A stretch of 63,637 nt of DNA, counting the filler. It is 5 parts of 5 records of this genome, joined end to end, with 100 filler letters (N's around TTAATTAATTAA, not from the genome) between each part and the next. Parts side by side here need not be neighbours in the genome. Positions count along the whole stretch, not along the records: positions 20,720 to 47,263 come from DRR723986_10707; 4 more parts are not named here. The stretch is one strand, 5' to 3'. Position 1 is the first letter of the stretch. The number at the start of each line of letters is the position of its first letter. A program made the translations under genes and the position numbers. The notes beneath the pieces are model-generated. The model was not told where the DNA came from, made no database searches, and was given only the letters and a program-made list of their open reading frames with translations. Below, in pieces: positions 1 through 46,347 of this stretch.

Positions 1-819
1 AAGGGCCAGCGACCCGGTATCGCCCATGAAGACAGCCGCTGGAGGGGCGTTGTACCACAGGAACCCAAGGCCACCGCCAAAGAGAGCAGCCGTGAAGATC
101 AGGATCTCGCCAGTGCCCGCAACATAGTGAACATCGAGATATTCACTGAAATCGACGCGGCCAACCGCATAGGCAATCACACCTAGGGTCGAGGCGGCGA
201 TCATCACAGGCATGATGGCAAGGCCGTCCAACCCATCAGTCAGGTTCACCGCATTGGCCGCACCCACAACAACGCAGACGGCAAAGGGGACGTAGAAATA
301 GCCAAGGTTGATCAGCGTATCTTTGAAAATCGGCAGGGCCAGTTGGTTTTGCAACGCGTCTGGGTGGTTGGCCGTAGCCCAGACGGCGGCAATCACGGCG
401 ATCAAAATACCCAATGCAACCCGCACCTTACCCGGCACGCCCTTGGTGTTTTGCTTGGACACCTTGGCATAGTCATCGGCAAACCCAATCGCGGCATAGC
501 TGAGGGTCACAAAGAGTACTAGCCAGACAAACGGGTTGTCCAGACGCGCCCAGAGCAAGGTTGCCGTCACCAAAGCGCCAACAATCAGCAAGCCACCCAT
601 CGTGGGGGTGCCTGCTTTGACAAAATGCCCCTCGGGGCCATCATCCCGGATGGGTTGGCCTTTGCCCTGTTTGCGGCGCAAAACGTTGATCAGCGGTTGA
701 CCAAAGATAAAGCCAAACAGCAATGCCGTCAGAAATGCCCCCCCTGCGCGGAAGGTGATATAGCGAAAGAGATTCCAGAAATCCCCTCCGTCCGACAGTG
801 CGGTCAACCAATAGAGCAT
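1..819 (-). CDS. mraY: Phospho-N-acetylmuramoyl-pentapeptide transferase (3'-truncated by window edge)
   Basis: Manual translation MLYWLTALSDGG...GQPIRDDGPEGHFVKAGTPTMGG...NAVNLTDGLDGLA; follows murF in the dcw cluster. Absent from the ORF track because no stop codon lies in the window. Confidence 0.96.
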   Translation of the reverse strand, partial: MLYWLTALSDGGDFWNLFRYITFRAGGAFLTALLFGFIFGQPLINVLRRKQGKGQPIRDDGPEGHFVKAGTPTMGGLLIVGALVTATLLWARLDNPFVWLVLFVTLSYAAIGFADDYAKVSKQNTKGVPGKVRVALGILIAVIAAVWATANHPDALQNQLALPIFKDTLINLGYFYVPFAVCVVVGAANAVNLTDGLDGLAIMPVMIAASTLGVIAYAVGRVDFSEYLDVHYVAGTGEILIFTAALFGGGLGFLWYNAPPAAVFMGDTGSLAL

Positions 820-3740: not shown

Positions 3741-3759
3741 GACGCCCCTGCCTGTTTGG

Positions 3760-9550: not shown

Positions 9551-9574
9551 ATCAGTCACCTTTTTCAAACAGGA

Positions 9575-9988
9575 TCAGTCGCGAACGACCATGACGGTGC
9601 AATGCGCATTGCGCACAACCCGCGCGAGGTTCGGGCCGATTTCGTAGTTCGGGAAATCACCCTTGGCTGATGCCATGATAATCATATCGTAGCCGTCTTT
9701 GTGCGCCATTTTCAGGATTTCGCGATAAACGCTGCCTTCCTGAATCTGGACCGGCACATCAGCGGCGTTATTTGCGGCCAGGATGGCCTCAACCTTGCCA
9801 TGGACAAAGTCACGGGCACCCGCGCCGTAGCCTTCGGGCAGGTTGGGCAGCTGGATGATTTCAGGGATGACCTCAACAGCGTGCAGCGTGGCGCCATAAA
9901 ACTTGGCCTGTTCCAGTGCTACAGGCAGTGCCTTTTTCCACGAACGGTCGTCCGTGTGATCAATCGGAAGCAGGATCTTGGTAGCCAT
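9575..9988 (-). CDS. Universal stress protein family protein
   Basis: KILLPID N-terminus, C-terminal IGPNLARVVRNAHCTVMVVR. Confidence 0.88.
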   Translation of the reverse strand: MATKILLPIDHTDDRSWKKALPVALEQAKFYGATLHAVEVIPEIIQLPNLPEGYGAGARDFVHGKVEAILAANNAADVPVQIQEGSVYREILKMAHKDGYDMIIMASAKGDFPNYEIGPNLARVVRNAHCTVMVVRD

Positions 9989-10027
9989 CCGTCATCTCCT
10001 CGAAGAATGTGAAATTCGTTTCAGATA

Positions 10028-10050
10028 CGAAGGGCCATCACAGCCCTTCG
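10028..10050. terminator. Intergenic stem-loop after the symporter gene
   Basis: CGAAGGGC-N7-GCCCTTCG inverted repeat; no strong U tract. Confidence 0.4.
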
Positions 10051-10071
10051 CGTTTGATCAATGTCCGAGGG

Positions 10072-11439
10072 TTACTCGGTGGCGTTGCCAGATTCGGATG
10101 CACCGTTTGAGGCAAAGAACTCTTTCGTCAGTTTGAAGACGACAGGGCTCAGCAAGGCCAGTGCGATCAGGTTCGGGATCGCCATCATTGCGTTCAGCGT
10201 ATCCGCCAGCAACCAGACAAAGCCGAGGTCAGCAGTCGCACCGAAGTAAATCGCAACGATCCACAACACACGGTACGGCATCAGCGCCTTGGCACCAAAG
10301 AAGAAGCCCACGCATTTTTCACCGTAGAACGACCAGCCAAGAATGGTGGTGAAGGCAAAGATCGACAGAGCAACCGCGATCAGTGCACCACCGATACCCG
10401 GCAGCGACGTTTCGAATGCCAGCGAGGTCAATGCCGCACCAGATTCACCCGATGTCCAAGCCCCCGACGCGATGATCGCCAGACCCGTGATCGAGCAGAC
10501 GATGATTGTGTCGATGAACGTGCCCAACATCGCAACCAGACCCTGGTTTACAGGACCGGCAGTAGACGCCGCAGCGTGCGCAATCGGAGCGGAACCCAGA
10601 CCAGCTTCGTTCGAGAAGACACCACGGGCCACACCAAAGCGGATCGCGGCCCAAACGGCTGCACCGGCAAAGCCACCTTCGGCAGCGGATGGGGTAAAGG
10701 CGTGGGTGAACACGAGGCTCAGCGCGTCGCCAATGGCACCAGCGTTGATCAGCAGAACCAAAAGACCCGCGATGATATAGCTGACGGCCATGAATGGAAC
10801 CAGCTTACCAGCAACCGCACCAATGCGTGTAATGCCACCAAGAATAACAGCGGCGGTCAGAACCATCAGAACAACACCAGTAACCGACGTGTTAACGCCA
10901 AAGTTGCTGTCCAGAACCTGTGCTACACCGTTGGCCTGCACACCGTTGCCGATACCAAACGCAGCAATTGCACCAAACAGGGCAAACGCTGGCGCCAACC
11001 AGTACCAGGACGAGCCCAGACCGTTTTTGATGTAGTACATCGGTCCACCAACAAAGTTGCCCAGCTCGTCTGTTTCGCGATACTTCACGGCCAGAACGGC
11101 TTCGGCGTATTTGGTGGCCATGCCTACCAAGGCGGTCATCCACATCCAGAACAAGGCGCCCGGACCGCCCAAGAAGACAGCAGTGGCCACACCGGCAATG
11201 TTACCCGTACCGATTGTTGCCGACAGCGACGTCATCAGCGCGTTGAACGGGCTGATTTGGCCCTCGCCCTGACTTTCGCGGCCTTTGAACAGCAGGCTAA
11301 AGCCCGTGCCCAGTTTCAGGATCGGCATGAATTTCAGGCCGACCTGTAAAAAGAAGCCGACGCCCAGAATGAGCACCAACATCAGTGGCCCCCAAACGAC
11401 GCCATTGATGGCTCCTACGATTGAACTTAACGCTTCCAT
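10072..11439 (-). CDS. Alanine/glycine:cation symporter (AGCS family)
   Basis: IGTGNIAGVA, GGPGALFWMW, GGPMYYI, RGVFSNEAGLGSAPIAHAAA. Confidence 0.95.
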   Translation of the reverse strand: MEALSSIVGAINGVVWGPLMLVLILGVGFFLQVGLKFMPILKLGTGFSLLFKGRESQGEGQISPFNALMTSLSATIGTGNIAGVATAVFLGGPGALFWMWMTALVGMATKYAEAVLAVKYRETDELGNFVGGPMYYIKNGLGSSWYWLAPAFALFGAIAAFGIGNGVQANGVAQVLDSNFGVNTSVTGVVLMVLTAAVILGGITRIGAVAGKLVPFMAVSYIIAGLLVLLINAGAIGDALSLVFTHAFTPSAAEGGFAGAAVWAAIRFGVARGVFSNEAGLGSAPIAHAAASTAGPVNQGLVAMLGTFIDTIIVCSITGLAIIASGAWTSGESGAALTSLAFETSLPGIGGALIAVALSIFAFTTILGWSFYGEKCVGFFFGAKALMPYRVLWIVAIYFGATADLGFVWLLADTLNAMMAIPNLIALALLSPVVFKLTKEFFASNGASESGNATE

Positions 11440-11478
11440 GGTTTCCCTCCCATTTGCGTTTTCGAATTACTTTGAAGG

Positions 11479-12417
11479 TCAGGCTTCTGCAGTCAAAGAC
11501 TGCTGGCGGGCCTGTTTCAAAGCGGCAAAATCTTCGTCCGCGTGGAACGAGGATCTGGTCAACGGCGTGGCGGACACGCCGAGGAATCCTTTGCCCCGTG
11601 CGATCTGTTCCAGTTGCGCGAATTCTTCGGGCGTCCAGAACCGATCAATCGGGTGGTGTTTTGGAGTGGGCTGCAGGTACTGGCCCACGGTCAGAAAATC
11701 GACATTTGCGGCGCGCATATCGTCCATCACCTGACGCACATCATTCATTCTTTCACCCAGACCAACCATCAGGCCGGATTTGGTGAACATCTGCGGATTG
11801 GCGCGTTTGGCGTCATCCAGCAGGCGCAGCGAGGTGTAATACCGCGCGCCGGGGCGCACCCGCGGATACAGATGCGGTACGGTTTCAAGGTTGTGATTGA
11901 ACACATCCGGCGCGGCCTCAAATACCGCATCAGCGGCGTTGCCTTTGCCAAGAAAATCGGGGGTCAGAACCTCGATCGTGGTGTCGGGGGTCTGATGGCG
12001 GACGGCGCGAATGGTCTGCGCGATATGATCCGCGCCACCATCGGCCAGATCATCGCGATCCACAGAGGTGATCACAACATGGCGCAGGCCCAGTTTTTTC
12101 ACCGCTTGGGCAACACGACCCGGCTCAAACACATCCAGCGCATCGGGTTTGCCTGTTGAGACATTGCAGAACGAACAGCCCCGCGTACAGGTCTCGCCCA
12201 TGATCATCATTGTGGCGTGGCGCTGTGACCAGCATTCGCCGATGTTGGGGCACGCGGCCTCTTCGCAGACCGTGGTCAAACCATGATCCCGCATCAGGCG
12301 ACGGGTTTCATAATACTCGGCGCTTTCGATCTTCTTCTTGCGAATCCACTTGGGTTTGCGGGGGATCACGCTGTCGGGTTTTTTGGCTTTTTCGGGATGG
12401 CGAAGCTGGATGGTCAT
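11479..12417 (-). CDS. lipA: Lipoyl synthase
   Basis: [13 protein letters not shown] and CTRGCSFC radical-SAM motifs, TRSSFHA. Confidence 0.96.
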
Positions 12418-21629: not shown

Positions 21630-24600
21630 TTACTTCGTAATCACCAGAGTGTGCGCCTGGCTGTAAGGACCGGCAGTCATGGTGTATGTATAAACACCGG
21701 ACGGCAATTCACTTACGTTCAGGTCTGACTCATACACACCGGCGTCAAGTGGCTGGTCTACCAGTACTTTGACGGTTTCACCCATCGCGTTGTAGATAAC
21801 GATGTTGGTGTGTGTGCGGAAGCCGACTGAGTATGCAATCGTAGTTGACTCAACAACTGGATTCGGCGTTACGTTACGCAGGCCGAATGTCGTGCCACTC
21901 AGTGAGATGAAACGACCGTTGTTCAGACAGATCGGGTTGATTCTGAGGCTACCTGGGAATGGTACGGCAATGACGCACTTCTCACGGTCTGTCTCAAGAA
22001 TCTCAACTGTCATTTCAATCGGCAGCGTCTCATCATCGTGCAGATAGAGCTGGAAGTTCAGACGCGCAAGCAGGAGCTCGCGGTCGATTGGTGCACCGGC
22101 GCGCAGCGTGAATTTCGAGAATCCATCGATGCGGCTGTGATCAATCTGACCTTCAAGCGTAAATCCGGCTTCAGGGCGAACTTCGGTCAGGCGCGCAGCA
22201 CCCAGGTCGTAGTTCAGCGTTACAATTACACCGGCGAGTCCTGACTCTTCAGTGTCATTGTATTCTTCTCTGTCCGGATCAATTTCGTCGAAGTTAGAGA
22301 TCGTCAGATCCAACTCAATTTCGTCACCAGGAGTGAGCAGAGTCGGGTCATCTTCCAAGTCGAATTCTACCGTTACAGTGTGAGCATCACCAAACAGTGG
22401 GGCACGCAGTGGTGGTCCCAGGCTGTTTTCGATGATCACAACGTCACTCTGCGCTTCTTCATCACTTGGCGTAAAGCGAATCTCAATATCGACGCTTCCA
22501 TTACCTGGAATAGTAATTGGCGTCGGCGTCAGGATTTCAAAGTGAGGATTGTTGCCTTCCAGACTCAAACCTGTGATTTCCGCACCGGAAGCATTGTCAG
22601 TCGTAACCGTAATGATGTCGGTAGGCTCAGCACAAAGAAGCACGTTGCCGTAGTCCAGACCGTTAACGGTCAGACCACCAGGTGAGTCACAGGAACCGGT
22701 AACCTGCACAACTGTTGTTGCACGGGCAACCAGATCAAAGTCGTTCTCATGTGCGTCATGCTCGATCGTCACGTCAACCGTATATGGTCCACCGTTGGCT
22801 GTGAAGACAACAGGAACCTGGAAGCTTTCACCCGGCGCGAGCACAAGGCCACGCTCTTCCGGATCTTGAGGAATAAAGGTCACGACTTCGTCAGCAACCT
22901 GGGCGTCAGGAACGGTACCCCACGCAAAGTTGGCCAGACCACCCTGAGCTTCAAAGCTGAGGCCATATACCGTCAGGTCTTCAGAAGCATCGGCATCATT
23001 AGTAATCGTCACAAAACCTTGCTCTTCAGACTCAGTGCCGCAGAGGATTTCAAGGAAGTCGTACCCTGTTGAAGATGTCTTAGGAATGATACCTTCACCC
23101 GCAACTTCACCCGAACCGGTATACTCATCGCGCCCAATGCGCTCGGTATCAGCCTGAGTGTTGTAGAACGGTGGAATTATCGTGCGTGTTACGATACCTT
23201 CAGCTGTAGGATTAAACTGGATCAGAGCAACGTAGATTTGTGACTCATCCCAGGTCGAAGGATCGGAATCTGGATCGATTCCTGCCATGCCGAAACGGCC
23301 ACCAATCTCCAACAGGTTCGAATTAGCTTGTCCCTCTTCGCTTTTCCTATAGACATTGACAATTGTAAATGGTCCGGCAACTGGATCACCTACAGCCTCA
23401 CCTTCCCACTGGATATCTTGAGGACGGAAGCGTACTTCCTGCTCGCCAAAGTTGATGAATTCAACAACAGACACATCACCCTGAACTGGATTACGTGGCA
23501 CTGTCGCACCAACGCGCACCTGACCGAAGTCGTAGAATGTCACCGATGGCGCGGACTTGATTGTTTCACCAGTCCAGACCGAGATTGGCTTGTATTCGCG
23601 TGCAAACTCTTCACGAGCGTTGGATTCAAATTCAACGCGGAATTCGTGCTCAGCTTCAACGTCTGAATTAAAACAGATCGTCTGGAAGAGTTGTTCTTCA
23701 CCTGGAGCGATTGTGAATGTTGGTGGAACTGCAGGATCCATGCCTGGGGCAGCCCAGGTAAATGGTCCGGTGTTGATGTCACCACTGGAAGCAAACACAA
23801 CGTTCACAGCACTGATTTCAAGGTCAGCAGTACCGCGGTTACGTACAACCACACCGGCCTGACCGGTCGTGTTCTTACAAATTGTACGTCCAACAGCCTG
23901 AATACCAACATTGTAATCTTCAACCGAAATGGCAGGTGTTACACCACGACCAATGACTTCACCGAGTTCCCACTCAAGGCAGGCGGTTTCGGCTACGATC
24001 ATGTCACGGTCAACCGCATCTTCATCGTTCAGGTCTTCAGTTTCATCTTCAGGTGTATAGCGCAGCTCAAGTGTAATTTCTTCAAGCGGCTCCATGAACA
24101 GTGGTGCTTCAGCAGTAGCGTCCAGCACCCGTTGTGGACCAACGATCGTAAAGAGCGAACCATCTTTAAGTTCAACTTTGCGGACTTCCAGGCGTTTGCT
24201 TGTTGGGTTAAACAAGGTCGCCTGCTGGTCGCCACTTGTACCGAGCAGCACATTGCCGAACAGCACTGGTGCCGGGCGCATTTCGATGCGGTCGGCCGTG
24301 TACTGTACGGAGTCAATTGTGACGTTACCCGCGCGATCCAATACCGTAAACACGGCTTTGGCGTCTTTCTCCAGGTCAATCACGTTAAAGCAGAACTCAA
24401 AACGCGTGACTTTAGGATCAGGCTTAAGTTCTTCGCTGGTTTTGAACTCGAGTTCAAAGTTGTAGCTACGTGGATTTTCTTCGTCGGTACCTTCAATCAT
24501 GTTGATGGCACTTACACCCTGGTCAATCTGACGAGGATCATCGCCGGCGGCACCATTTGTTTCTTCTGTAGTGAGTACACAGAAGGTACCGCAGTCTTCT

Positions 24601-26138
24601 TCAATCTCAACTGGTGGCGGAACGGTATCCAGCTCATCCAGCTTGTTCAGAGCCATAGCAGCGGGCCATCCGTAGGATTCAAAGCGGCTAAAGCCATAAA
24701 TGTATCCACCAAAGCGGGCTTTACCGTTACTGGTTACCTGGTGCGCACCTGGTGGTACGTTTACACGTGCCCACGTCAGACCCGTGCCTGGAATCTCATT
24801 TACCAGGAAGAGTGGATCACGATCGGCAATCGGCGTACCATCCAGTTTGATCGAACGCAAGGTCTCTTGCCTTGGATCATCCGGATCCATCTCAGCTATA
24901 ATATTAAACCAGTTGGTATTAAACTCAGCATTGGATGGCGTTTGGAACACCGTAGCAGGTATATACTGTTCCTGCGGAACAACCTGCACCATAAATGGGT
25001 CAAAGTCCTGGTTGCCGTCCCAGCCGGATGAGTATGAATACTGCATCACAAACACGGGTTTATCGGCATCCCATATGGCGGTACCTCGAATCGAGACAGC
25101 ACCTCCCTGCGGATTAACTTCCTCAAACTCAGCCCAATCGCCACGTTCGGAAAGCAAACCATTGCGCACGGCAATCAGGTCGCGATTGTTGTCTTTTTCA
25201 TAGTAGCGCACGGTGTATTCCGTATTCGGCTGTGAAGCCAGAATCCGGAAGTAGTCACCAGTGTTTTCGCGGAAAAATTCAAGGGAGATATAAGTTTTAC
25301 CCCAGGTCGTGGACGGCGGAATCATCGCCATCAGGTTATCACGACTGGACGACCCCATAGCGGTCGGAATAATCGTTCGTTCGTGGAAGGCAATCAAACC
25401 AACCGGTTTGGTTGCTGTGATACTTGTACCGGTCATATCAAATGCACGGTCAATACCTGTACCGCGAATCATATACGTCTGGCCTTCGTTCAACGTAATG
25501 TTGAATCGCTGACCAATGCGCTTACCGCCAACTGTTGTACCACCGGCTGTTGAACCGTCAAGTGTGATCACAACTGAAGTTTCATCTTCTTTGGCTACCA
25601 CGATAAAACCACCACCGCGCACAGTTTGTGCCTCGGGGTAGTCATAGTAACCAATGTGCATGTAGCGACGGTCCCAAACGTTGGTTGGCAGCGCCAGGTA
25701 ACCTTCGGAGCAGAATCGCTTAGCCGAAAGTACGTAGACTGAAACCGGGTCGTCGGCAGTAATTTTTAAGCCTTTTTCAGTAACGATATCACTCTCGCGG
25801 ACTTCCATCGCCCATGACAGCTCGTTAGCTTCGCCGGAGAAGGTCGTAATCTCAAGAGCCTTGACTTGTTTTGTCAGTGGACCAAAACCTAATCCTGGCA
25901 TTTCAATTGTGACTTCTGTATCAACACTGGATGTCACATAAATCTCTAACGCGCGCTGGATGATATTCACACCGGTCGCTTCGTTCGGCGGCATGGCAAT
26001 CCAGAATTCACGACCCTGCGCGGTGTTGTTGAGCATCTCCTCAACGGTCGGTACTTTGTTGCCTTTGAGTTGTGCGTGCAGGTCTCCCGTGCAGCACAAC
26101 AGGGCCACAATCAAAAAGTAGCCGAATTTTCGCATCAT
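21630..26138 (-). CDS. Large T9SS-secreted surface protein: IgGFc-binding-like N-terminal domain, several Ig-like (ASH/choice-of-anchor D type) domains, type A CTD
   Basis: Signal peptide; GREFW, EGYLALPT, YGFSRFESYGWP; C-terminal VTPNP...IYNAMGE...LPSGVYTY...LVITK CTD. Confidence 0.82.
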   Translation of the reverse strand: MMRKFGYFLIVALLCCTGDLHAQLKGNKVPTVEEMLNNTAQGREFWIAMPPNEATGVNIIQRALEIYVTSSVDTEVTIEMPGLGFGPLTKQVKALEITTFSGEANELSWAMEVRESDIVTEKGLKITADDPVSVYVLSAKRFCSEGYLALPTNVWDRRYMHIGYYDYPEAQTVRGGGFIVVAKEDETSVVITLDGSTAGGTTVGGKRIGQRFNITLNEGQTYMIRGTGIDRAFDMTGTSITATKPVGLIAFHERTIIPTAMGSSSRDNLMAMIPPSTTWGKTYISLEFFRENTGDYFRILASQPNTEYTVRYYEKDNNRDLIAVRNGLLSERGDWAEFEEVNPQGGAVSIRGTAIWDADKPVFVMQYSYSSGWDGNQDFDPFMVQVVPQEQYIPATVFQTPSNAEFNTNWFNIIAEMDPDDPRQETLRSIKLDGTPIADRDPLFLVNEIPGTGLTWARVNVPPGAHQVTSNGKARFGGYIYGFSRFESYGWPAAMALNKLDELDTVPPPVEIEEDCGTFCVLTTEETNGAAGDDPRQIDQGVSAINMIEGTDEENPRSYNFELEFKTSEELKPDPKVTRFEFCFNVIDLEKDAKAVFTVLDRAGNVTIDSVQYTADRIEMRPAPVLFGNVLLGTSGDQQATLFNPTSKRLEVRKVELKDGSLFTIVGPQRVLDATAEAPLFMEPLEEITLELRYTPEDETEDLNDEDAVDRDMIVAETACLEWELGEVIGRGVTPAISVEDYNVGIQAVGRTICKNTTGQAGVVVRNRGTADLEISAVNVVFASSGDINTGPFTWAAPGMDPAVPPTFTIAPGEEQLFQTICFNSDVEAEHEFRVEFESNAREEFAREYKPISVWTGETIKSAPSVTFYDFGQVRVGATVPRNPVQGDVSVVEFINFGEQEVRFRPQDIQWEGEAVGDPVAGPFTIVNVYRKSEEGQANSNLLEIGGRFGMAGIDPDSDPSTWDESQIYVALIQFNPTAEGIVTRTIIPPFYNTQADTERIGRDEYTGSGEVAGEGIIPKTSSTGYDFLEILCGTESEEQGFVTITNDADASEDLTVYGLSFEAQGGLANFAWGTVPDAQVADEVVTFIPQDPEERGLVLAPGESFQVPVVFTANGGPYTVDVTIEHDAHENDFDLVARATTVVQVTGSCDSPGGLTVNGLDYGNVLLCAEPTDIITVTTDNASGAEITGLSLEGNNPHFEILTPTPITIPGNGSVDIEIRFTPSDEEAQSDVVIIENSLGPPLRAPLFGDAHTVTVEFDLEDDPTLLTPGDEIELDLTISNFDEIDPDREEYNDTEESGLAGVIVTLNYDLGAARLTEVRPEAGFTLEGQIDHSRIDGFSKFTLRAGAPIDRELLLARLNFQLYLHDDETLPIEMTVEILETDREKCVIAVPFPGSLRINPICLNNGRFISLSGTTFGLRNVTPNPVVESTTIAYSVGFRTHTNIVIYNAMGETVKVLVDQPLDAGVYESDLNVSELPSGVYTYTMTAGPYSQAHTLVITK

Positions 26139-26938: not shown

Positions 26939-29734
26939 TCATCGAAGAATCAAAGGAACGGTCGTAAAACCAGTGCCATTGTCAACGACCAGGCGGTAAT
27001 AACCCGCCGCAAGTTCACGCCCGCCGGCATCGCGGCCGTCAAACTGCCAGCGCACTGGGCCATTGAGCTGCACCTGGCGCAGTGTAACGCCGTTGAGGTC
27101 TACAATGCGTACTTCAAACTGCCCTGGCAGAGCCAGATCAATTACACCGATGCCGGCCGCCGGAAGCGGATTTGGCATCACAGTGATAGCGTCGGCAAGT
27201 TCTGCATCAAAACGCACCGATGTACCAACGCGACCAGTACCGTTCAGAATAACGTCAAGCGTCGTTGGCTGATCGTCAACCGTCAGACGCAATACGCCGC
27301 TGAAATCACCAGCCGCAGGCGGCGCAAAGCGCACCGTCAGGTTGCCACTTTCGCCGGCAGCTACATCCAGAGGCAGCATTTCCACAAGCTCGTAGGCGCC
27401 TTCGGCACCTTCAGCAAACTCAAAGGCAGATACCCTTGCAGGCAAGTCACCAGCGTTGACGCGGAAGGTGCGTTCTACCACCGGACCATCTACAACGGCT
27501 TCGTCAAACTCAAGCGAAAAGACCGAAGCAATCGCTGCCAGGCCGATTCCGCGCACGCTCACACCCGTTCCAGGGTTGACAGCATTGCTGCTAAAGCTGA
27601 TTCTTCCGGTGTGCTCACCTACCGTTGCCGGTGTATAACGCACCGCAATTTCGCGTTCAGCGTTCGGAGCAATCGTAAATGGCAGGTCCGTCGGCGAATC
27701 AATGCTGAAGTCACCGGCATTTGAGTTGATAGCCGTAATCTCCAGCGGAGCATCGCCGATGTTCTTCAACATGAATGGCACAGGCCGGCCAAAACCGACC
27801 AGCAGCTCACCGTAATCCAGGAGCGTAGTCGAAGTCCCAATCGCTGGGCCATCAGCCAGTGGTGTTACCATTACATCCATCGAACCACTTACAACCTGCC
27901 CGCAATCATTGCTGACGATACAAGTGTACCCACCGGCATCCGCAGGCGTCACAGACTCAATCGTAAGCGTAGATTCAATTTCCTCGTCAAGTACAGTGCC
28001 GTCGCGGCGCCAGCGATACATCAGGTCATCGCCACTAGCTGTCACACTAAGTGTTACGCTGTTACCTTCGTCAACCTGCGCACCACCGGATTCCATCGTA
28101 ATCTGCGGAACACCGGTAACGGAGATGATGATAGGCTCACTAACGGCATCAGCACCGCAGGGTCCGCTCACCGTAACCTGGTAGGTTCCGGCGTCGGAAG
28201 CATCAGCGCTCAAAATTGAAAGGAGTGCCAAATCACCACCGGCGATAGCATTGCCGTCTTTAGTCCATGCATAGGTGAAGTTACCTTCGGCCTGTGCTTC
28301 CAGCGTCACATTGGCACCCTCACAAATTGCGCGGGATTCCGAATGTGAAGTGATTGTTGGAGGCAGCCCCACCGTCACGATTGTTTCCTGGCTGGAGACC
28401 GCCGGGCTGCAAGCGCCGGACACGATGACAACATAAGTACCGGCATCGCCGGGCGTGGCACTGCCAATTTCCAGTCGCGGACCGGTCGCATTAGGCACCG
28501 GTTGTCCGTCTTTCTCCCAGGAGAAACCAATATCAGTTCCGGTAGCCGTTACTTCCAGAAGAATCATGTCCCCCGCACAGGCATTTGCTGCCTGGGGCTG
28601 CACCGTGATTGCCGGTTGTTCATCAATCGTCAGCGTCGCTGCATCGCTGATCACCTGATCGTCGCAGGCTCCAATCACGATAACATCGTAATCGCCCGCA
28701 TCATCCGGCGTCAATCCGCTGAGCGTCAACATAATATTTTCGGCACCGGCAATTGGAGTACCGTCCTTGCGCCACTGGAATGACAAACCCGCACCATCGG
28801 CCTGCACCTCAAACACGGCCGTACCGCCTTCACAACGCTGTATGGCAATTGGCTGCATGGTGATGGTCGGCGCGTCGGCAATCGCAAAGTTGCCCGTCAT
28901 CGCATCATTGACATCTGCATCCGCGGCGTCACTCACCCGTATGCGGTAGTCCGCATCCGCCGGTTGCGCCGATGGAATCGACCAAACAAATGAACCGGAC
29001 GAAGCCGGTGTGCTGTTGGTAATCACCGTGGTATAAGACTGGCCGCCATTATCGGAGAGTTCAATCTTGACGTTATCGACCATCGTGGACTCCCACTCGA
29101 TCGTCACGTCGCTATCAGGGCAAAACACGCCGCCGGCAAGCGGCGCGCTGAGCGTAATACTTGGCACCGCCTGCACTGTGACTTTGACGGGTGCCAGCCA
29201 GTTCCAGTCGTCACCAGAGTCAGAATTGCCGTTGTTGTTGACTGCATTACCAATTGCACGGATGTAGTAGTCACCTGGCGCAGTTGGAGCGGTCCACTCA
29301 AATTCAAACTCCACTGTTCCGCCGGAGAGTGCTTTTTTGGCGGAGTGCGTCAATTCATCACCGGAAGACTTCAGGCCGGAACCCGTCACCGCCGCAAGAT
29401 CACCCGCATCCGTCGAGCCACTTTCAGTAGTTTTGACCGCGATATTACAACCGGCACGCGTGTGGCTGCCATGTGCCACTTCCAGCGTAAAGACCGTTGT
29501 AGATCCCGGTGCCACATTAAAGGAACCGGTTTCACTGGTGACTTTAAGAGTTGTGTTGTCACTCTTGGCCGAACCATGGCAGGAGCCACAACCCGAGCCA
29601 TTAACCTGGGTACGTCCTGTGCGGCCGGAAGAATTGGCCTGCATCTCTGCAGTTCCGCACAGTAACATTAGAAAGGCGGCCACAAGGGGTAGCCAGCTTT
29701 GCCTTAAACTTGAAGGTCTGTAGCAAGTCCGCAT
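26939..29734 (-). CDS. T9SS-secreted protein: N-terminal CxxCH Reeler-like (choice-of-anchor V type) domain, four Ig repeats, two ASH-like domains, CTD
   Basis: Signal peptide; GCGSCHG; ELTHS...FEWTAP...GNAVNNNG; repeats with WxKDG/DAGxY; C-terminal VMPNP...LAAGYYRLVV. Confidence 0.8.
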   Translation of the reverse strand: MRTCYRPSSLRQSWLPLVAAFLMLLCGTAEMQANSSGRTGRTQVNGSGCGSCHGSAKSDNTTLKVTSETGSFNVAPGSTTVFTLEVAHGSHTRAGCNIAVKTTESGSTDAGDLAAVTGSGLKSSGDELTHSAKKALSGGTVEFEFEWTAPTAPGDYYIRAIGNAVNNNGNSDSGDDWNWLAPVKVTVQAVPSITLSAPLAGGVFCPDSDVTIEWESTMVDNVKIELSDNGGQSYTTVITNSTPASSGSFVWSIPSAQPADADYRIRVSDAADADVNDAMTGNFAIADAPTITMQPIAIQRCEGGTAVFEVQADGAGLSFQWRKDGTPIAGAENIMLTLSGLTPDDAGDYDVIVIGACDDQVISDAATLTIDEQPAITVQPQAANACAGDMILLEVTATGTDIGFSWEKDGQPVPNATGPRLEIGSATPGDAGTYVVIVSGACSPAVSSQETIVTVGLPPTITSHSESRAICEGANVTLEAQAEGNFTYAWTKDGNAIAGGDLALLSILSADASDAGTYQVTVSGPCGADAVSEPIIISVTGVPQITMESGGAQVDEGNSVTLSVTASGDDLMYRWRRDGTVLDEEIESTLTIESVTPADAGGYTCIVSNDCGQVVSGSMDVMVTPLADGPAIGTSTTLLDYGELLVGFGRPVPFMLKNIGDAPLEITAINSNAGDFSIDSPTDLPFTIAPNAEREIAVRYTPATVGEHTGRISFSSNAVNPGTGVSVRGIGLAAIASVFSLEFDEAVVDGPVVERTFRVNAGDLPARVSAFEFAEGAEGAYELVEMLPLDVAAGESGNLTVRFAPPAAGDFSGVLRLTVDDQPTTLDVILNGTGRVGTSVRFDAELADAITVMPNPLPAAGIGVIDLALPGQFEVRIVDLNGVTLRQVQLNGPVRWQFDGRDAGGRELAAGYYRLVVDNGTGFTTVPLILR

Positions 29735-37667: not shown

Positions 37668-39194
37668 ATGCAATTCTTCAAATCCACAATCAGCACTATA
37701 ACCGGCGCCGGCGCTCTGCTTTTAGCCTGCATCTCAATTCCAGTGATGTACGCCGCCGGCTCCGAACTGGAAACACAAGATGCACAAGAAACCGCCATAG
37801 TTCACAAAGTTGTAGTTGCCAACGGCAGCAGCCAGGACGGTGCGGTTGATATCGAAGCCATTCGCGCCAAAGTACTCGAAAAATTGGGCCCCGAGCGCAG
37901 CGCCGAAGTATTGGCTGCCGTTGAACCACTGCTCAACAAATTACAGTCCGCCGACTATTCTTCAATGTCTTCCGAAGAACTTCAGGACATGCTTGGCAGC
38001 AACAGCGATGCCAAAGTCCGCGTCTTCAAACACGATGTTAATGTAGATATCGATGCCGAAGGTGACGCTGCAACAAGTACCAGTGCCAAAGTCATTATGC
38101 GCACGATTGGCGAAGATGGCGAAGTCGTTGAGCAGGTCATGGAAGGTGACGAAGCGATGCAGTTCATCGGCGGCGAAGGCGGCCTGGCAACTCACCTGGA
38201 AAACGCGCATGGCATCGACAGTGATGTGCAGGTTAAAGTCATGCAGTTCAAGAACGAAGACGGTGACATCTCCAAACTACTCAAGTTTGAAACCGCAGTT
38301 AGTGGCGCGGCTCAATGCGCCGACGCCCACAAACTGCTCGAATCACTTGAGCTGGACCTCGAAAACCTGGAGAACCTGGAGAACCTCGAAGTTGATGCGG
38401 AAAACGTGGTAATCATGCAGCGCGGTGAAACTGACGGCGTGACCGAAGTGCGCAGCACAGACGAAAATGGCCAAATCAAAATCGTTAGAACTCAAATCAG
38501 TGATGACGTAGACCAGCAAATAGCCGAACTGCTCGCCGCCGGAGGCAAAATCCACACTAACATCGACGGCGATCAGCAGAACGTCAAAGTCAAAGTCCTG
38601 CGCATCAATAAAGACGACATGGACATTGATGTAGATGCAGAACCGGCTGAACTCATGTCCTGGACCAGTGAAGACGGCAACATTGCAGTCAGCAACAGCA
38701 AACGCATCATGGTATTCATCGATGCTCAAAAACTCAGCCCCGAAGGCGAAACAGGTATCAGCCCCGAGGCCGTTGAGCAAGCAATCGTCGAAGCCGAAGT
38801 CATTATCGTTTCAGATGAAGACGTAGACGCAGAAACATCACAAACACAAAACTCTGGCCGGCAAGACGAGGCACAGAACCAAAACGCCAAACAGGCTCCA
38901 TTCCAAAATCCGCAGGCAAATGACAACTCAGGCCTGCAACTCGACGGCTTTAATGTCTATCCAAACCCAAGCGACGGACGTTTTAATCTGGAATTCAACC
39001 TGCCGCAGGCAGGCAGCACGTCCGTCAAAATCATCGATATCCAGGGACGCGAAGTTTTCCGCGAAGACTTCGAAAGCTCAGCCAACCAACTATTCGCTCG
39101 TCCGATTGACCTGTCCGGCGGTGCTGCCGGCACTTATCTGCTCTCGGTTACGCAAAATGGCGCCACGGCAACAAAAAAGATTGAAGTACGCTGA
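37668..39194 (+). CDS. T9SS type A CTD protein with acidic low-complexity N-terminal region
   Basis: Signal peptide; C-terminal FNVYPNPSDGRF...IIDIQGREV...AGTYLLSV...TKKIEVR. Confidence 0.82.
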   Translation: MQFFKSTISTITGAGALLLACISIPVMYAAGSELETQDAQETAIVHKVVVANGSSQDGAVDIEAIRAKVLEKLGPERSAEVLAAVEPLLNKLQSADYSSMSSEELQDMLGSNSDAKVRVFKHDVNVDIDAEGDAATSTSAKVIMRTIGEDGEVVEQVMEGDEAMQFIGGEGGLATHLENAHGIDSDVQVKVMQFKNEDGDISKLLKFETAVSGAAQCADAHKLLESLELDLENLENLENLEVDAENVVIMQRGETDGVTEVRSTDENGQIKIVRTQISDDVDQQIAELLAAGGKIHTNIDGDQQNVKVKVLRINKDDMDIDVDAEPAELMSWTSEDGNIAVSNSKRIMVFIDAQKLSPEGETGISPEAVEQAIVEAEVIIVSDEDVDAETSQTQNSGRQDEAQNQNAKQAPFQNPQANDNSGLQLDGFNVYPNPSDGRFNLEFNLPQAGSTSVKIIDIQGREVFREDFESSANQLFARPIDLSGGAAGTYLLSVTQNGATATKKIEVR

Positions 39195-40697: not shown

Positions 40698-41153
40698 TCA
40701 CAAAGCTGCCGAACCTGGCTCCAAACTTCTTGCGCTCGCCCTGTGGCGCAGCAGCATCCGCACAGCCACAATACACAAATAGGCCGGCCAAACCACACGC
40801 AACATCCACTCAACGAACATCATGTATTTTGATGGGCCAAACCACAGTTCGGCGTAGAACTCATAGCGGCCCAGATAGATCACATCAAACAGATACCCCC
40901 CCAGTACACAGCCAGCCCAGGCGGCAAGATACATGACGGGATAAAGCGGCACGCCCAATAGTAGGTTACGCCATATACCGGAAAACAGCGGCTGCCGAAA
41001 TGCCAGGTATAAAACCACTACTTCAGACGTAAACTGCAAAATATTCCACGAGCCTAAAAGACTTGTGAGGGTAGCAAATACTTCAATCCACCCCAGCAGC
41101 AGCGCCAGGTACAGCAATCTACGCCAGTTTTTGTCCGGACTCGCAGTCTTCAC
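40698..41153 (-). CDS. Hypothetical membrane protein
   Basis: About 4 hydrophobic segments; directly follows the 41195-41839 gene. Confidence 0.6.
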   Translation of the reverse strand: MKTASPDKNWRRLLYLALLLGWIEVFATLTSLLGSWNILQFTSEVVVLYLAFRQPLFSGIWRNLLLGVPLYPVMYLAAWAGCVLGGYLFDVIYLGRYEFYAELWFGPSKYMMFVEWMLRVVWPAYLCIVAVRMLLRHRASARSLEPGSAAL

Positions 41154-41194
41154 TCGTCCACCTTTACAAACGGTGTTTAAGCCGGCAGCCGAGA

Positions 41195-41839
41195 CTATAC
41201 GCCATATAACATTCTTAACTCTTTTGTCTCGCCGTCTTTGGTTCGATACTTAACAATCAGGTAACAGTCGCGCCCACGCACCGGCAAATAAATCCAACCC
41301 GAAGATTTCCCGCCGGGCTCAAGTACCGCCTTGCGCAGTCTGCCGTCTTCCAGCTCAGCTTCAAATGAGCTATTCGTATTTGAGGCTCTTAACATATTAA
41401 ACACGGCAATCGGCAGGCCAATTGGCAAGGCTACTCCACTACTGCCGTTTGATTCGATTGTGAGAACCAGGGGCGCCCACAGGGCATACCACCACACCGT
41501 CAGCCCCATCTTGTCACGCACCTCATCCGCCTGCATGGTTAAATCCCCAATGCCATTCTCATTAAGACTGTACAGCACACTGTGCCCATCAACTTCCAAT
41601 TCACTATCGGAGATATTGTGCAACTGCAACTTGAGAATGGTTATTCTCTCCTCACGCGCAGTATCGTCAAATCGCTCATTTTCACCGAATGGCTGAATAG
41701 AAGTAATCACTTCCAGCTCTTCAGTTTTTTTACTTACAGAACCGATCGTCCTGGAATCTTGCATCGACGTATAACCCGTGGCACAGGAAGACAATAAAAC
41801 TACACAGGCGACACATAAAATGGCTTGGCGGATTAACAC
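41195..41839 (-). CDS. Hypothetical lipoprotein
   Basis: AGGAG RBS, lipobox LSSC, internal hydrophobic hairpin. Confidence 0.7.
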   Translation of the reverse strand: MLIRQAILCVACVVLLSSCATGYTSMQDSRTIGSVSKKTEELEVITSIQPFGENERFDDTAREERITILKLQLHNISDSELEVDGHSVLYSLNENGIGDLTMQADEVRDKMGLTVWWYALWAPLVLTIESNGSSGVALPIGLPIAVFNMLRASNTNSSFEAELEDGRLRKAVLEPGGKSSGWIYLPVRGRDCYLIVKYRTKDGETKELRMLYGV

Positions 41840-42187
41840 GATAAAACTCTCCTGAAGTTAACTGGTGTTGTAGTGCAGCAGACTTAACATTCTGCGCTGT
41901 CAAACAACATAACACTTGCAGTAACCTGCGTGGACACATTCGTACGCACTTCACCCCGCATTCACTCCAAATGGACGTAAATGTTGGACGAGCACATCCA
42001 AATTGAACTTTGTGCGTATGTATTATTTGTGTTGGGGGGGATCTTGGGTGGCCGGGCCGTACAACGACACGCGTTAAAATCTCAAAAATCTGCGAGATTC
42101 ACAAGACTAATCTTTTAGCGGCAGGCGGCGATACTGGTCAACTCCGGCCACTCCTGAGTAACTATTGCCTGGCCGCTGGGTGACTTT

Positions 42188-42243
42188 TTGCTTGAGCGCT
42201 GCGCCGCGTTTCACCACGGCTGTCTCTTTATGAGTTTCTTGTT
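42188..42243. repeat. 56-nt intergenic repeat, copy 1 (REP/MITE-like, internal hairpin)
   Basis: Matches 47205-47261 with two substitutions and one indel. Confidence 0.9.
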
Positions 42244-42245
42244 AG

Positions 42246-42442
42246 TTATTGAACTGGAAGTCTACATTCGCAATTGAGCACTAAAGTAGAATGCAAGTAA
42301 GCTTCGCACCAGTAGCAGCACTGGAAGTCAAACAAACAAGTTGCAGGTCAATCGCACTATGCAGCCTGGATCCGCCGCATACAAACATCATGCTCAAAAC
42401 CCAAACTGCCACTCCAGACAGCAAATTTCAGGCATGTTTCAT
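42246..42442 (-). pseudogene. Possible decayed Cys-rich secreted-peptide gene
   Basis: RBS plus MKHA*NLLSGVAVWVLSMMFVC (signal-like), then in a shifted frame ATCLFDFQCCYWCEAYLHSTLVLNCEC. Confidence 0.25.
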
Positions 42443-42577
42443 ATCCCTCTACAGAATAGGTCAAAAGTACGTACCCTTCATTTTTCACTTTGATGAATTG
42501 ATTTTAAAATCTATCTTGACTCCTACACTGCCAGTAAATCACAATCTAACTACCTCATTTATCTGGATTATACCAAC

Positions 42578-43060
42578 ATGCAGAAATCATTATTTTCAGC
42601 ACTCGGTTTAGTATTGATTTGTTTTCTTGGCTTTAGCATTAGTGCCCACGCAGCTAATAGCTGTTCTGCTACGGCCGGCGATAAAGGGCCTTTTGCAGGA
42701 CAGTCCTGTACAGCCAGTTGCGATCTGTTCTCCACTGCCCACTGCCAAGCTGGCGGCCTATTATCAGCCCCAAAATGTGAATGCATCACGGGAAGTGGAA
42801 CGGATCACCGTTCACCTAGTACAGTCTCGGCCGGGCTGCTTTCCGACGCTATTGACTTCGCCGATTACGTTGATAACTACGGCTCATCAAATATGAGCAT
42901 CCTTGCCACCAAGAGCAGCGCCGTAATCGCCATCGTCCAAAACAATGGTCTGGATGTCGATTTCCAGGATGCAGAAGACGAGTGGCTCGTTGCCTGGAAC
43001 GACTTAACATCAACGGAACGAGCAGACTGTGAAAGCTGGGCTTCAGCTCGCGGTTATTGA
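42578..43060 (+). CDS. Secreted Cys-rich precursor, paralog 1
   Basis: Signal peptide ending AHA; C-x14-C-x3-C-x7-C-x10-C-x-C; clear similarity to 43709-44185. Confidence 0.88.
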   Translation: MQKSLFSALGLVLICFLGFSISAHAANSCSATAGDKGPFAGQSCTASCDLFSTAHCQAGGLLSAPKCECITGSGTDHRSPSTVSAGLLSDAIDFADYVDNYGSSNMSILATKSSAVIAIVQNNGLDVDFQDAEDEWLVAWNDLTSTERADCESWASARGY

Positions 43061-43708
43061 GCAGATTCGCGAATGCGCCGTTTAACACGCAGCAATCGCT
43101 CATAGAACATCTGTTAATTAACAATTTTAAGTACTGCATTGTCTGCACTTTTTGCAGCCTTTAATGCTAAACGCTCTTGAATCTCACTGTGCCGAACCCG
43201 CAAACAACATTTGTTATTGCGTCGCCAACCTGTCTTGCACTGAAAGACGGCGGCCCTACTTCGTCACAACCCGAAGCGATCGCTTAACACTTGCGCTGCC
43301 GTAATACTGAGCGCGAAGCATAACACCGGAGACCGGTTTGCATTCTAAATGCCCCTGATATTTCGAGGCTTAAACATGTACATAACTTGTAGATGTAAGC
43401 TGTCGTTGAAGCCAGGGCCACAAGGTACACAACTGCTCCCGGTCGTGATTGGACAACGAATCAAGCTGCATCGACAAGAGGTTTTGCACGGTATCATTCA
43501 AGCTGAGTACAACACTCGGCCTGGCATTAGCAAGCCCAGACCCTCTAGTCGCTTTGCAAACGAACGATACAAGTTAACACACAACAGAACAGTTTGCCGA
43601 TTCAATTGGTTGAAGCAGGCCTACCTTTGTTATGTGTTGTAATACACTGCCACCGTTTTATACCAACTTTCTAATACTTAACAACTCAATTTAATGGAGT
43701 ATTTCATT

Positions 43709-44185
43709 ATGAAGAAGTCACTATTCTTAACACTCGCCGCCATTGTATGTATGGCATTTGGAATGAATACCAGCACATTCGCCGCCAACAGCTGTAGTGC
43801 TGAGGGTGGATTCCTGGCAGGCGGTTGCGATGCCAATTGTTCCGTAGGTCAATCAGCATGGTGCCATGCTGGAGGTTTTCTCAGCGGTGCAAAGTGCGGC
43901 TGCGCACCACAGGACCCGGAACCAACCGATCACCGTTCACCAGGCAGTGTTGACCCTAACATACTTGCCGACGCACGCGACTTCGTAATTTATGCCAACA
44001 ACTACGCGACTTCAAACATGAGCGACCTGGCTTCAAAAAGCGCAGCTGTCATTTCAGTATACGACCTCAATGGCACCGACGCTGACTTTCAAACAGCAGA
44101 AGATCAATGGCTCGTTTCTTATGGTAATCTGACAGCTACCGAGAAGTCTGACTGCGAAAGTTGGGCGAGTGCTCGCGGGTATTGA
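43709..44185 (+). CDS. Secreted Cys-rich precursor, paralog 2
   Basis: GGAG RBS; signal peptide ending TFA; C-x10-C-x3-C-x7-C-x10-C-x-C; same DCESWASARGY C-terminus. Confidence 0.88.
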   Translation: MKKSLFLTLAAIVCMAFGMNTSTFAANSCSAEGGFLAGGCDANCSVGQSAWCHAGGFLSGAKCGCAPQDPEPTDHRSPGSVDPNILADARDFVIYANNYATSNMSDLASKSAAVISVYDLNGTDADFQTAEDQWLVSYGNLTATEKSDCESWASARGY

Positions 44186-44222
44186 TGCAAATGTAAGGAC
44201 GTAGTTCCTTAGAGATAACCCA

Positions 44223-44262
44223 ATGCACAAAGGGCAAGATTGCAATCGAGCCCTTTGTGCAT
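44223..44262 (+). terminator. Stem-loop terminator after paralog 2
   Basis: Perfect 13-bp inverted repeat ATGCACAAAGGGC / GCCCTTTGTGCAT. Confidence 0.7.
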
Positions 44263-44685
44263 ATTTCACGTTTAAATACACACCCTACTACATCTTACGC
44301 AGAATTTCTTTTAGTTAGTTCGCAATCCAACTTCCCCACTGGTCGAATACCTACACAACGTTCTAGACATTCGACGGGGTATCTTGAGACTTTTAAAAAT
44401 AGAGCATGCTATTTTTTTCAAAATTTTGCGTACCTAAAGACAAAGTTATCCGTATTATGGAAATTCGACTAACCTGATGCAGGTCCAAGTTTTGAGATCA
44501 ACTATACAGCACCCGCTACTAATCAACAGTTTTGTAAAAGCATGCAACCTGCTATGGGGAAGAATTTTGGTCAAAAAAGCAGTAATACGCTATTTTGAGG
44601 TACACTAGATGGGAAAACTCATTCCATCTATTACTTCAGCACTGACTAATTGAATTGAACCGACTACGAGCTGGATTAAGACCCT

Positions 44686-46347
44686 ATGCAAGCAACTACA
44701 CAGCTTCTCAGACTGCGCATTCTTGTTCTTTTTATTTTACTGGTGTCAACGCTCGACGCAACTGCTTCCGTAATAACTATCCAGGGCACCGTCAAAGGTG
44801 TAGACAATAAGCCGCTCGAACTGGCACACGTGCAAGTCAGCGAATTTGGGCAAAATGAGCCCTTCCTGATCCAGCCGCTCAACGCCGACGGTACATTTTT
44901 GATCGAACTGGCGCAGAAGCCGCTCTACAAAATCTCGTTTTCCGGCGTAGGCCACTACCAAAGTGACTTCCCCTTCTTTGCCGATGGCTTAGACAATGTG
45001 ACGCTGGACCTGGTTCTGGAACCCTATCAATATCCTCCAGCGCTGGACTCCCTTTATGTAATTGGCGACTTCAACGATTTTCAGCGCGGCGACGGCCGCC
45101 TGATGACCGGCAATTCAAAGACTGGATTTCAACTTGAAATTCCCTGGGACCAGGATTCCCTGGCATATCAGATTTTGGGAGCAGAGCAGCGCGATGGCCG
45201 CAGCATTAATGGCTCCCAATCCGACAGGTTTGAATACGATGGGCGTGGTGACTATCGCTCCATTATTGCCGTTAGAGACGGCAAGGCGTCTATCCGCTAT
45301 CGTCGCGATTCAGGCCCAATTGCGGCAGATGCCTTTAAGATCAGCTCAACGCCGCCTGGGCTTGCCCGCACATTTATAATTGACCGTGAACTAAAACTAG
45401 CGCGCGCACTCTTCCGCAAAAACAGCAGAGGGCTAAGCCAGGACAGCACGGCCGCATTGGCAAAACTTGAAGCCGAACGTCTGGCGCAGGTACTAAAAGA
45501 CGAGAAAAACCAGCTTGCACGACAGTTGATCATTCTTGAATACATGCGCCTGGGAGTTCTCGAAGTCATTACTGGCACAAAATTAATCGATCCAGTTGTT
45601 GTTGCGCAGGTTGAAGAACTCATGCCGGCAGATTCACCTGTCTGGCAACTTGAACCCGGAATGGTGGTAATCCAAAGCATATTATCGGGCGACACAGGCC
45701 TTTCCGGCTACTTTACAGATATGATCAGTTCGCACCCTTCTCCCGCCGCCAGGGCCGAGGCGCTTTACAATGGCCTGGAATACACAACCATGACGGGCCA
45801 AAAAGACCGCGCAGCCGAACTATATTCCATACTGCTCGCAGAATCAAATCCGGGACGCTGGGGAAAACTAGCCAAAAGCAACTACTCCAAGAACAGGACA
45901 ATCACATCCGGCAAACAACTGCCGCAGTTTAAATTCGCAGCGCTGGCAAACCCAGCCGACTCAATTGACAATCAGGCAATCCAGGGCAAATACGTGCTGA
46001 TAGACTTCTGGGCGCTGTGGTGTGGCCCCTGCCTTGCCGAACTGGATAACCTGCACAAAGTCTACAAGCAGTACAAAAATCAAAACTTTGAAATACTTAG
46101 CGTGTCATTTGACAAAAAGCCGGCCGACGTCGCTGCTTACCGAACACGCAAATGGCCCATGCCCTGGATGCACGCCAGTGTTCCCGAAGCATTTAAAAGT
46201 CCGGCAGCCAAAACTTTTGAAGCACTCAGCATTCCCAAGCCGATATTAATCGGTCCCGACGGAACGATCCTGGCCTCAGACATAGAATTGCGTGGCGCAG
46301 CGCTAGAAACCACATTGGCCAGACATATACAAGGAACAAAAGAATGA
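44686..46347 (+). CDS. Exported TlpA/ResA-family thiol-disulfide oxidoreductase with large N-terminal extension
   Basis: Signal peptide; GKYVLIDFWALWCGPCLAEL, FEILSVSFD, IPKPILIGPDG. Confidence 0.88.
   Translation: MQATTQLLRLRILVLFILLVSTLDATASVITIQGTVKGVDNKPLELAHVQVSEFGQNEPFLIQPLNADGTFLIELAQKPLYKISFSGVGHYQSDFPFFADGLDNVTLDLVLEPYQYPPALDSLYVIGDFNDFQRGDGRLMTGNSKTGFQLEIPWDQDSLAYQILGAEQRDGRSINGSQSDRFEYDGRGDYRSIIAVRDGKASIRYRRDSGPIAADAFKISSTPPGLARTFIIDRELKLARALFRKNSRGLSQDSTAALAKLEAERLAQVLKDEKNQLARQLIILEYMRLGVLEVITGTKLIDPVVVAQVEELMPADSPVWQLEPGMVVIQSILSGDTGLSGYFTDMISSHPSPAARAEALYNGLEYTTMTGQKDRAAELYSILLAESNPGRWGKLAKSNYSKNRTITSGKQLPQFKFAALANPADSIDNQAIQGKYVLIDFWALWCGPCLAELDNLHKVYKQYKNQNFEILSVSFDKKPADVAAYRTRKWPMPWMHASVPEAFKSPAAKTFEALSIPKPILIGPDGTILASDIELRGAALETTLARHIQGTKE

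Follow-up and report, generated by a model that had tools for sequence, protein, structure and literature searches.

Two tandem genes on the plus strand of a 63,637-nucleotide (nt) stretch of DNA, referred to here as the window (positions 20,720 to 47,263 come from record DRR723986_10707), encode small proteins with a predicted signal peptide, a cysteine-rich N-terminal module and an acidic C-terminal domain. The original prediction for this region, made from the letters alone, had described two paralogous secreted precursors with a defensin-like six-cysteine domain. The two paralogous open reading frames (ORFs) were confirmed at 42578..43060 and 43694..44185; they follow one another on the same strand, and their products share 83 of 162 aligned positions (51% identity, BLASTP E 2e-54). 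The features of the pair are as follows.

42578..43060, plus strand: paralog 1 precursor, 160 amino acids (aa; stop included); ORF, matched by the family hidden Markov model (HMM) at 137.5 bits, E 1.9e-41, in the six-frame window.
42578..42652, plus strand: predicted Sec signal peptide of paralog 1, 25 aa, ending in AHA; from the translation and the A-x-A rule.
42653..42790, plus strand: six-cysteine module of paralog 1, mature residues 1-46, cysteines at 4, 19, 23, 31, 42 and 44; from the AlphaFold2 model and the alignment.
42791..42829, plus strand: linker of paralog 1, mature residues 47-59, containing TDHRSP; the segment of lowest conservation, with an 18-nt repeat.
42830..43057, plus strand: acidic domain of paralog 1, predicted to form four helices, mature residues 60-135; from the model, the net charge (-11), the isoelectric point (pI 4.1) and conserved motifs.
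43694..44185, plus strand: paralog 2, 163 aa as listed, 158 aa from the ATG at 43709; ORF, family HMM 140.3 bits, E 2.6e-42.

Much of what had been read from the letters was borne out. Both translations open with a hydrophobic segment and continue with ANSC, directly after AHA in paralog 1 and TFA in paralog 2 when the signal-peptide cleavage sites are placed by the A-x-A rule. Measured on an alignment of 24 family members, the cysteine spacings were 14/3/7/10/1 in paralog 1 and 10/3/7/10/1 in paralog 2, as in the proposed pattern C-x(10-14)-C-x3-C-x7-C-x10-C-x-C. The TDHRSP linker is present in both paralogs, where it coincides with an 18-nt direct DNA repeat (42799-42816 and 43924-43941, 94% identical), and both end in DCESWASARGY. 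The last ~76 aa carry a net charge of -11 in paralog 1 and -7 in paralog 2 (pI 4.1), and four helices were modelled in them, in agreement with the acidic, helical domain that had been expected. The two similar loops reported for paralog 2 fared less well. Their similarity is real, in that no more than 3 of 500 shuffles with preserved composition scored as high; none of the remaining 23 members of the alignment has it (values all at least 0.2), and it fails correction for 24 tests. Because the other members have no such loops, the similarity appears to be incidental rather than a feature of the family.

Paralog 2 probably starts at its second ATG (43709, MKKSLF...), since this position agrees with the alignment to the start region of paralog 1 and with the MK(K) start of most relatives. 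The regions upstream of the two genes show little similarity outside the start region, and the family HMM found no third copy in the six-frame window. In both paralogs, helix 4 contains a seventh cysteine (43025-43027 and 44150-44152, within D-C-E-S-W), at a position where the family consensus is mostly isoleucine; it may be a free thiol.

Family size and conservation

When 1.84 billion representative proteins were searched by phmmer with paralog 1 as the query, 20 matches were obtained at E<=1e-3, the best at 5.7e-11 and the only one at <=1e-10, with near end-to-end coverage in all. Nineteen of these proteins are 147-168 aa long; the twentieth (252 aa) is extended at its N-terminus only, and both domains co-occur in every match found. 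Two further members were recovered by a family-profile search of a word-indexed protein collection (5 matches). Searching by word index with paralog 2 gave 32 candidates, none of them significant, and the ESM Atlas, queried with paralog 1 and P0015, gave no usable match.

The family alignment retains the six cysteines together with the C-terminal motifs YGTSxM, AE and LSxxExxDIxxWxxxxGY. All six aligned cysteines are present in 18 of the 24 members, with one or more displaced in the alignment in the remaining 6. The spacing C5-x-C6 is invariant (24/24), and C2-x3-C3 and C4-x8-C5 each occur in 21 of 24, the former being replaced by x6 in the other three. Mean pairwise identity is 25% in the cysteine module (cysteines excluded), 29% in the helical domain and lowest, at 18%, in the linker, whose arginine is retained in 11 of 22 alignment rows by manual count. 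Twenty-one members have 6, 8 or 10 cysteines in the module, an even number, and the other 3 have an odd number. Since the extra module cysteines come in pairs, we infer that they form disulfides, of which a six-cysteine module would contain three.

Neither paralog matched an entry in Pfam, NCBIfam, PADLOC or PHROGs, and Pfam assigned no consistent family to the 24 aligned members. A PDB sequence-profile search returned only Rop (E 0.74) and the epidermal growth factor domain of factor X (E 8.3), and no described equivalent was found in the open-access and bioRxiv literature. These results uphold the proposal of an undescribed family of exported disulfide-rich proteins; judged by sequence, the family is real, rare and undescribed within the libraries searched.

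When a genome collection of 185,579 species was scanned with both window paralogs, 141 pattern matches were obtained and none was confirmed as a relative, so that the species of the window and its near relatives appear to be missing from this collection or masked in it. A second genome scan, with four family members, identified three loci in genomes of 29-33% G+C. Locus L001 encodes P0007, L002 a protein 43% identical to P0007, and L003 encodes P0017. The record of L003 is titled Ignavibacteria bacterium; those of L001 and L002 are titled 'uncultured Hyphomicrobiales bacterium', a label that is doubtful against their G+C contents of 29% and 33%. At L003 a small exported cysteine-rich ORF of 139 aa (212-631, plus strand) lies 1.4 kilobases (kb) upstream of the family gene (2081-2614, plus strand). 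Its first ~27 residues are 70% identical to those of the family gene and its mature part is unrelated, so that it looks like a duplicated 5' region or a leader driving another cysteine-bearing product.

Predicted structure

AlphaFold2, run on the 24 family members, gave a model with a mean predicted local distance difference test score (pLDDT) of 89.6 and a predicted template-modelling score (pTM) of 0.79, with 89 of 135 residues at or above a pLDDT of 90. A single-sequence run of paralog 2 reached a pLDDT of 50.1 and was discarded. In the model the cysteine module consists of four beta strands (residues 3-7, 18-22, 28-32 and 41-45, mature numbering), with C19 inside a strand, no helix before residue 60 and block pLDDT values of 72-91. 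Four helices follow (60-74, 79-96, 101-116 and 120-131), with block pLDDT values of 94-98 over residues 61-130. The whole-chain pTM of 0.79 suggests that the model places the two domains relative to each other with some confidence.

With the whole two-domain model as the query, Foldseek found no significant match, the best E values being 0.77 in the PDB and 0.30 in BFVD. Among the 50 PDB matches listed, the weak hits include 2ip6 (PedB), 3t9o (CZB) and 1rcp, all at E values of at least 0.77 and template-modelling scores of at most 0.35. The small protein thus appears to be built of two parts without a match in the structure libraries searched, and solving its structure would be likely to reveal a new disulfide mini-fold.

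The TlpA-like neighbour and the surrounding genes

The next gene on the same strand as paralog 2 is an addition to what the original prediction had described.

44686..46347, plus strand: TlpA/ResA-like thioredoxin-fold oxidoreductase, predicted to be exported, multi-domain, 553 aa, with a WCGPC site; from Pfam, PDB matches and locus comparison.

Residues 408-528 of its product matched Pfam Thioredoxin_8 (6.7e-16), AhpC-TSA (7.8e-14) and Redoxin (6.4e-11), all above the cut-offs, and its PDB matches were TlpA-like thiol-disulfide oxidoreductase chains (best 1e-14). The best NCBIfam matches were ResA and TlpA, but no named equivalog, StoA included, fitted the protein, with scores of 55.6 bits against a cut-off of 170 for ResA, 40.3 against 230 for TlpA and 34 against 123 for DsbE. 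The translation begins with a hydrophobic N-terminal signal, and the thioredoxin-like domain is preceded by an N-terminal extension of ~400 aa. The sole hint to the nature of this extension was CarboxypepD_reg at E 0.0039, below the cut-off, and a word-index search of 5.8 billion clusters with residues 30-420 found no relatives.

In all three loci that could be assessed (the window, L001 at 8493-9530 and L003 at 2689-4449), the family gene has a TlpA-like gene as its immediate downstream neighbour on the same strand. At L001 it lies ~10 nt downstream of the family gene and encodes 345 aa with a thioredoxin-like domain; at L003 it lies 75 nt downstream and encodes 586 aa with Thioredoxin_8, Redoxin and AhpC-TSA matches. 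The L002 sequence stops 218 nt beyond the family gene, so that this locus was not counted; a same-strand ORF with a hydrophobic start begins there 72 nt downstream, is cut after 49 codons and has no match to the other enzymes. The active sites of the three enzymes read WCGPC, TCGPC and WCSPC, and a cysteine after the hydrophobic stretch indicates that those of L001 and L003 are possibly lipoproteins. The enzyme of the window can be aligned with its L003 homolog from end to end, at 27% identity across 596 columns (E 3e-60), and the family proteins of the same two loci are only ~28-30% identical.

In an all-versus-all BLASTP comparison of the loci, and of the locus ORFs with the whole window, the family gene and the TlpA-like gene were the only genes common to distant loci; L001 and L002 additionally share an upstream LigB gene. 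Across the 96.8 kb examined, a thioredoxin-domain profile built from the three TlpA-like genes detected those three and no others. The 21 window ORFs (17.6-52.7 kb) and 23 locus ORFs that were scanned included neither DsbD nor CcdA. The conserved adjacency suggests a dedicated thiol-disulfide partnership between the small protein and the enzyme. At L001 two overlapping genes (9545-11005 and 10989-12077, both plus strand) directly follow the TlpA-like gene; their products are paralogs with 24% identity and no known family, and the pair has no counterpart in the window or L003.

One further feature lies between paralog 2 and the enzyme gene.

44223..44262, no strand assigned: palindrome with 20-nt arms, 90% complementary and without a loop, 38 nt after paralog 2; from a repeat scan.

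This palindrome is a possible terminator. No T run follows it, it is absent from the terminator scan, and Rfam gave only weak noise of the palindrome type. Rfam returned palindrome noise only across 41000-45500, and the promoter and terminator scan gave counts no higher than in shuffles. Long non-coding gaps flank the small genes (41840-42577, 738 nt; 43061-43693, 633 nt; 44186-44685, 500 nt), in which no Rfam match, no remnant of the family and no convincing ORF were found. The G+C content is ~0.44-0.57 across ~20-48 kb, compared with 0.58-0.68 on either side, and the two genes lie at the minimum (0.44-0.48). This region could be an acquired island or a mosaic of the assembly; no tRNA was found in the window.

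Upstream of paralog 1 lie genes for a predicted membrane protein (40698-41153, minus strand) and a predicted lipoprotein (41195-41839, minus strand), neither of which matched Pfam, NCBIfam, PADLOC or PHROGs or is shared with the other loci. Further away, genes at 21630-26138 (minus strand), 26939-29734 (minus strand) and 37668-39194 (plus strand) encode surface proteins with Ig-like (immunoglobulin-like), IgGFc_binding and type IX sorting domains. A Por_Secre_tail domain was found on the products of 37668-39194 and 21630-26138, and since these large surface proteins are encoded nearby, the host appears to have type IX secretion. The family occurs in bacteria with type IX secretion cargo (the window and L003). 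In Pfam searches, neither paralog nor any of the 24 members carried the Por_Secre_tail sorting domain.

Proposed function and comparison with known systems

The reading we favour, with a probability of roughly 45%, is that the small protein works uncut, with both domains, in the periplasm or as a secreted protein, and that its disulfide module serves as a dedicated client or redox partner of the TlpA-like enzyme. The small protein would be exported by Sec and have ~135 mature residues, comprising an all-beta module of ~45 aa with six cysteines in three putative disulfides, a short linker and an acidic four-helix bundle. It most likely works intact, because the two parts always co-occur and diverge at the same rate. 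A periplasmic location is suggested by the presence of a Sec signal and the absence of the type IX sorting domain, unlike in the neighbouring proteins. The TlpA-like enzyme would act on the disulfides in the six-cysteine module by reduction or reshuffling, and the helical domain would act as a handle or a working surface.

Several points weigh against this reading. It is drawn from sequence, model and gene linkage, and the linkage is supported by three independent loci only. The L001 enzyme is shorter and aligns with the others over the C-terminal ~110-120 residues only. In the window, a 500-nt gap and the palindrome separate paralog 2 from the enzyme gene, so that co-transcription of the two is doubtful there, and paralog 1 lies a further 1.1 kb upstream of the pair. 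TlpA-like genes are numerous in Bacteroidota and their relatives. The 24-sequence alignment behind the AlphaFold2 model is shallow, and the seventh cysteine is unpaired and gives both window paralogs an odd total. A predicted complex of the TlpA-like protein with paralog 2 scored 0.00 in both runs, in which the supplied alignments were not used, and is evidence neither way.

The least unlikely of the alternatives is that the intact, disulfide-stabilised protein acts on other organisms or on an enzyme, as a toxin, inhibitor, adhesin or signal, with the TlpA-like neighbour being only a general folding helper or linked for some other reason. Tandem duplication, fast divergence and a rare, patchy distribution (20 clusters in 1.84 billion representatives) would fit such a role, as would neighbouring genes for secreted surface proteins with type IX sorting domains and the local minimum of G+C content at the two genes, which horizontal acquisition could explain. 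However, the proteins themselves have no type IX C-terminal sorting domain, and a Sec signal alone would leave the protein of a diderm bacterium in the periplasm. They also match no toxin or inhibitor in fold or sequence, and an outward-acting role offers no reason for the conservation of the enzyme gene, and of no other neighbour, between distant genomes. We consider a role in metal handling somewhat less probable still. Here the six cysteines would be thiolate ligands for copper or zinc, kept reduced by the TlpA-like enzyme as TlpA does for ScoI and CoxB. The neighbour does resemble the reductases of the TlpA/ResA type and has a thioredoxin-like CGPC site, the family contains a C-x3-C pair, and TlpA is described as reducing the copper-binding cysteines of cytochrome oxidase subunit II before metallation (PMC7558416). 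Against this stand the even number of module cysteines in 21 of the 24 members, which is expected for disulfides, the lack of a conserved histidine or methionine beside the cysteines in the family alignment, and a PDB profile search that returned no Sco, CopZ or similar protein; moreover, no copper- or cytochrome-oxidase-related gene is common to the loci.

The first reading of the locus was a defensin-like peptide precursor cut near DHRSP, in which the acidic domain serves as a pro-domain, chaperone or export domain. On that reading the TlpA-like enzyme might be a foldase for the peptide. The family does follow the defensin cysteine order C1...C2xxxC3...C4...C5xC6, and the two window genes form a rapidly diverged tandem pair. 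A G-x-F stretch between C4 and C5 presumably recalls the defensin gamma-core, and the acidic propeptides of plant defensins neutralise the peptide, as the acidic domain could do here. PedC of the pediocin operon is a precedent for an oxidoreductase encoded beside a disulfide-bearing peptide (PMC4919988). In a CS-alpha-beta defensin, however, the CxxxC segment lies on an alpha helix stapled to the CxC strand, whereas AlphaFold2 predicts a module of four strands without a helix, largely the outcome that the original prediction had named as its refutation. The residues S, T, V, I, N and A make up most of the C2-C3 segment, and the module has a net charge of -2 to +3 across the 24 members, in line with the caveat already attached to the prediction that it is not cationic. 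No defensin, scorpion-toxin or gamma-thionin family was found in Pfam at E<=1 for any member, and the fold comparison that had been proposed as a check yielded no defensin or toxin among the 50 PDB matches listed. The notion of a conserved pro- or export domain carrying variable cysteine-rich cargo did not hold either: the same two-part architecture was found in 19 of the 20 matches, the helical domain carries no other cargo among them, and the cysteine module is no more variable than the helical domain. In addition, no processing site can be recognised in the linker, which is poorly conserved, and no transporter, peptidase or immunity gene is common to the loci. We therefore regard a cut defensin precursor as improbable: the defensin pattern is a look-alike in cysteine order alone, and the modelled fold indicates that the protein is most likely not a CS-alpha-beta defensin released from a pro-domain. 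Finally, the unusually long non-coding flanks (738, 633 and 500 nt) and the failure of the word-index search to find a protein-collection entry would fit non-functional ORFs, arisen by chance or decaying as pseudogenes. Both ORFs are nevertheless intact and keep the six cysteines and C-terminal motifs, and full-length relatives occur in many clusters and three genomes; the identity of the paralogs, the 20 phmmer relatives and the confidently predicted structure rule this candidate out for practical purposes.

Among known systems, the CS-alpha-beta (cis-) defensins, including bacterial classes I-V, share with the family a signal peptide, the cysteine order and a small cysteine module. Unlike them, the family module is predicted to be all-beta, is non-cationic and appears permanently fused to a four-helix bundle, and no sequence-profile or fold match connects the two. 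A catalogue of bacterial cis-defensins reports 74, from Proteobacteria, Acidobacteria and Actinobacteria, and its main text does not contain 'Bacteroid'; by this account the family belongs to other phyla (PMC11561630). The C-terminal domain is predicted to be an up-down bundle similar in size to those of Rop, PedB, cytochrome c' and CZB; these matches are all insignificant and reflect the generic bundle shape alone.

The pediocin system is Gram-positive and combines a double-glycine leader with an ABC (ATP-binding cassette) transporter and an immunity gene in one operon. These features are absent from the window and the other loci, and the likeness to PedC/PapC lies in a thioredoxin-type gene beside a small, exported, disulfide-bearing product. 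PedC, compared here by description only, is reported to improve correct oxidation of that product (PMC4919988). A more ambitious proposal, which we regard as a long shot, is that the two genes form a new system for a ribosomal disulfide-rich product in Bacteroidota/Ignavibacteriota. The module would be an unseen mini-fold of two disulfide-stapled beta hairpins, folded by the TlpA-like protein, and would have an extracellular role as a signal, inhibitor or antimicrobial, either cut from or displayed on the acidic helical carrier. If true, this two-gene system would be a Gram-negative counterpart of the PedC-pediocin arrangement.

The client reading is closest to the TlpA/ResA/CcmG systems. Dedicated clients are known for such enzymes: ScoI and CoxB for TlpA, and apocytochrome c for ResA. 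To our knowledge, almost no TlpA-like thioredoxin-fold protein of Bacteroidota and relatives has a known client. The conserved neighbour shares with these systems the thioredoxin fold, the CxPC site and the export signal, and the idea of one reductase for one client is the same (PMC7558416). It differs from them in NCBIfam scores far below the cut-offs and in its ~400-aa N-terminal extension, and its presumed client belongs to a new family unrelated to Sco, CoxB or the cytochromes. One TlpA-like enzyme with a large N-terminal extension, genetically tied to one small cysteine protein, thus provides a directly testable pair.

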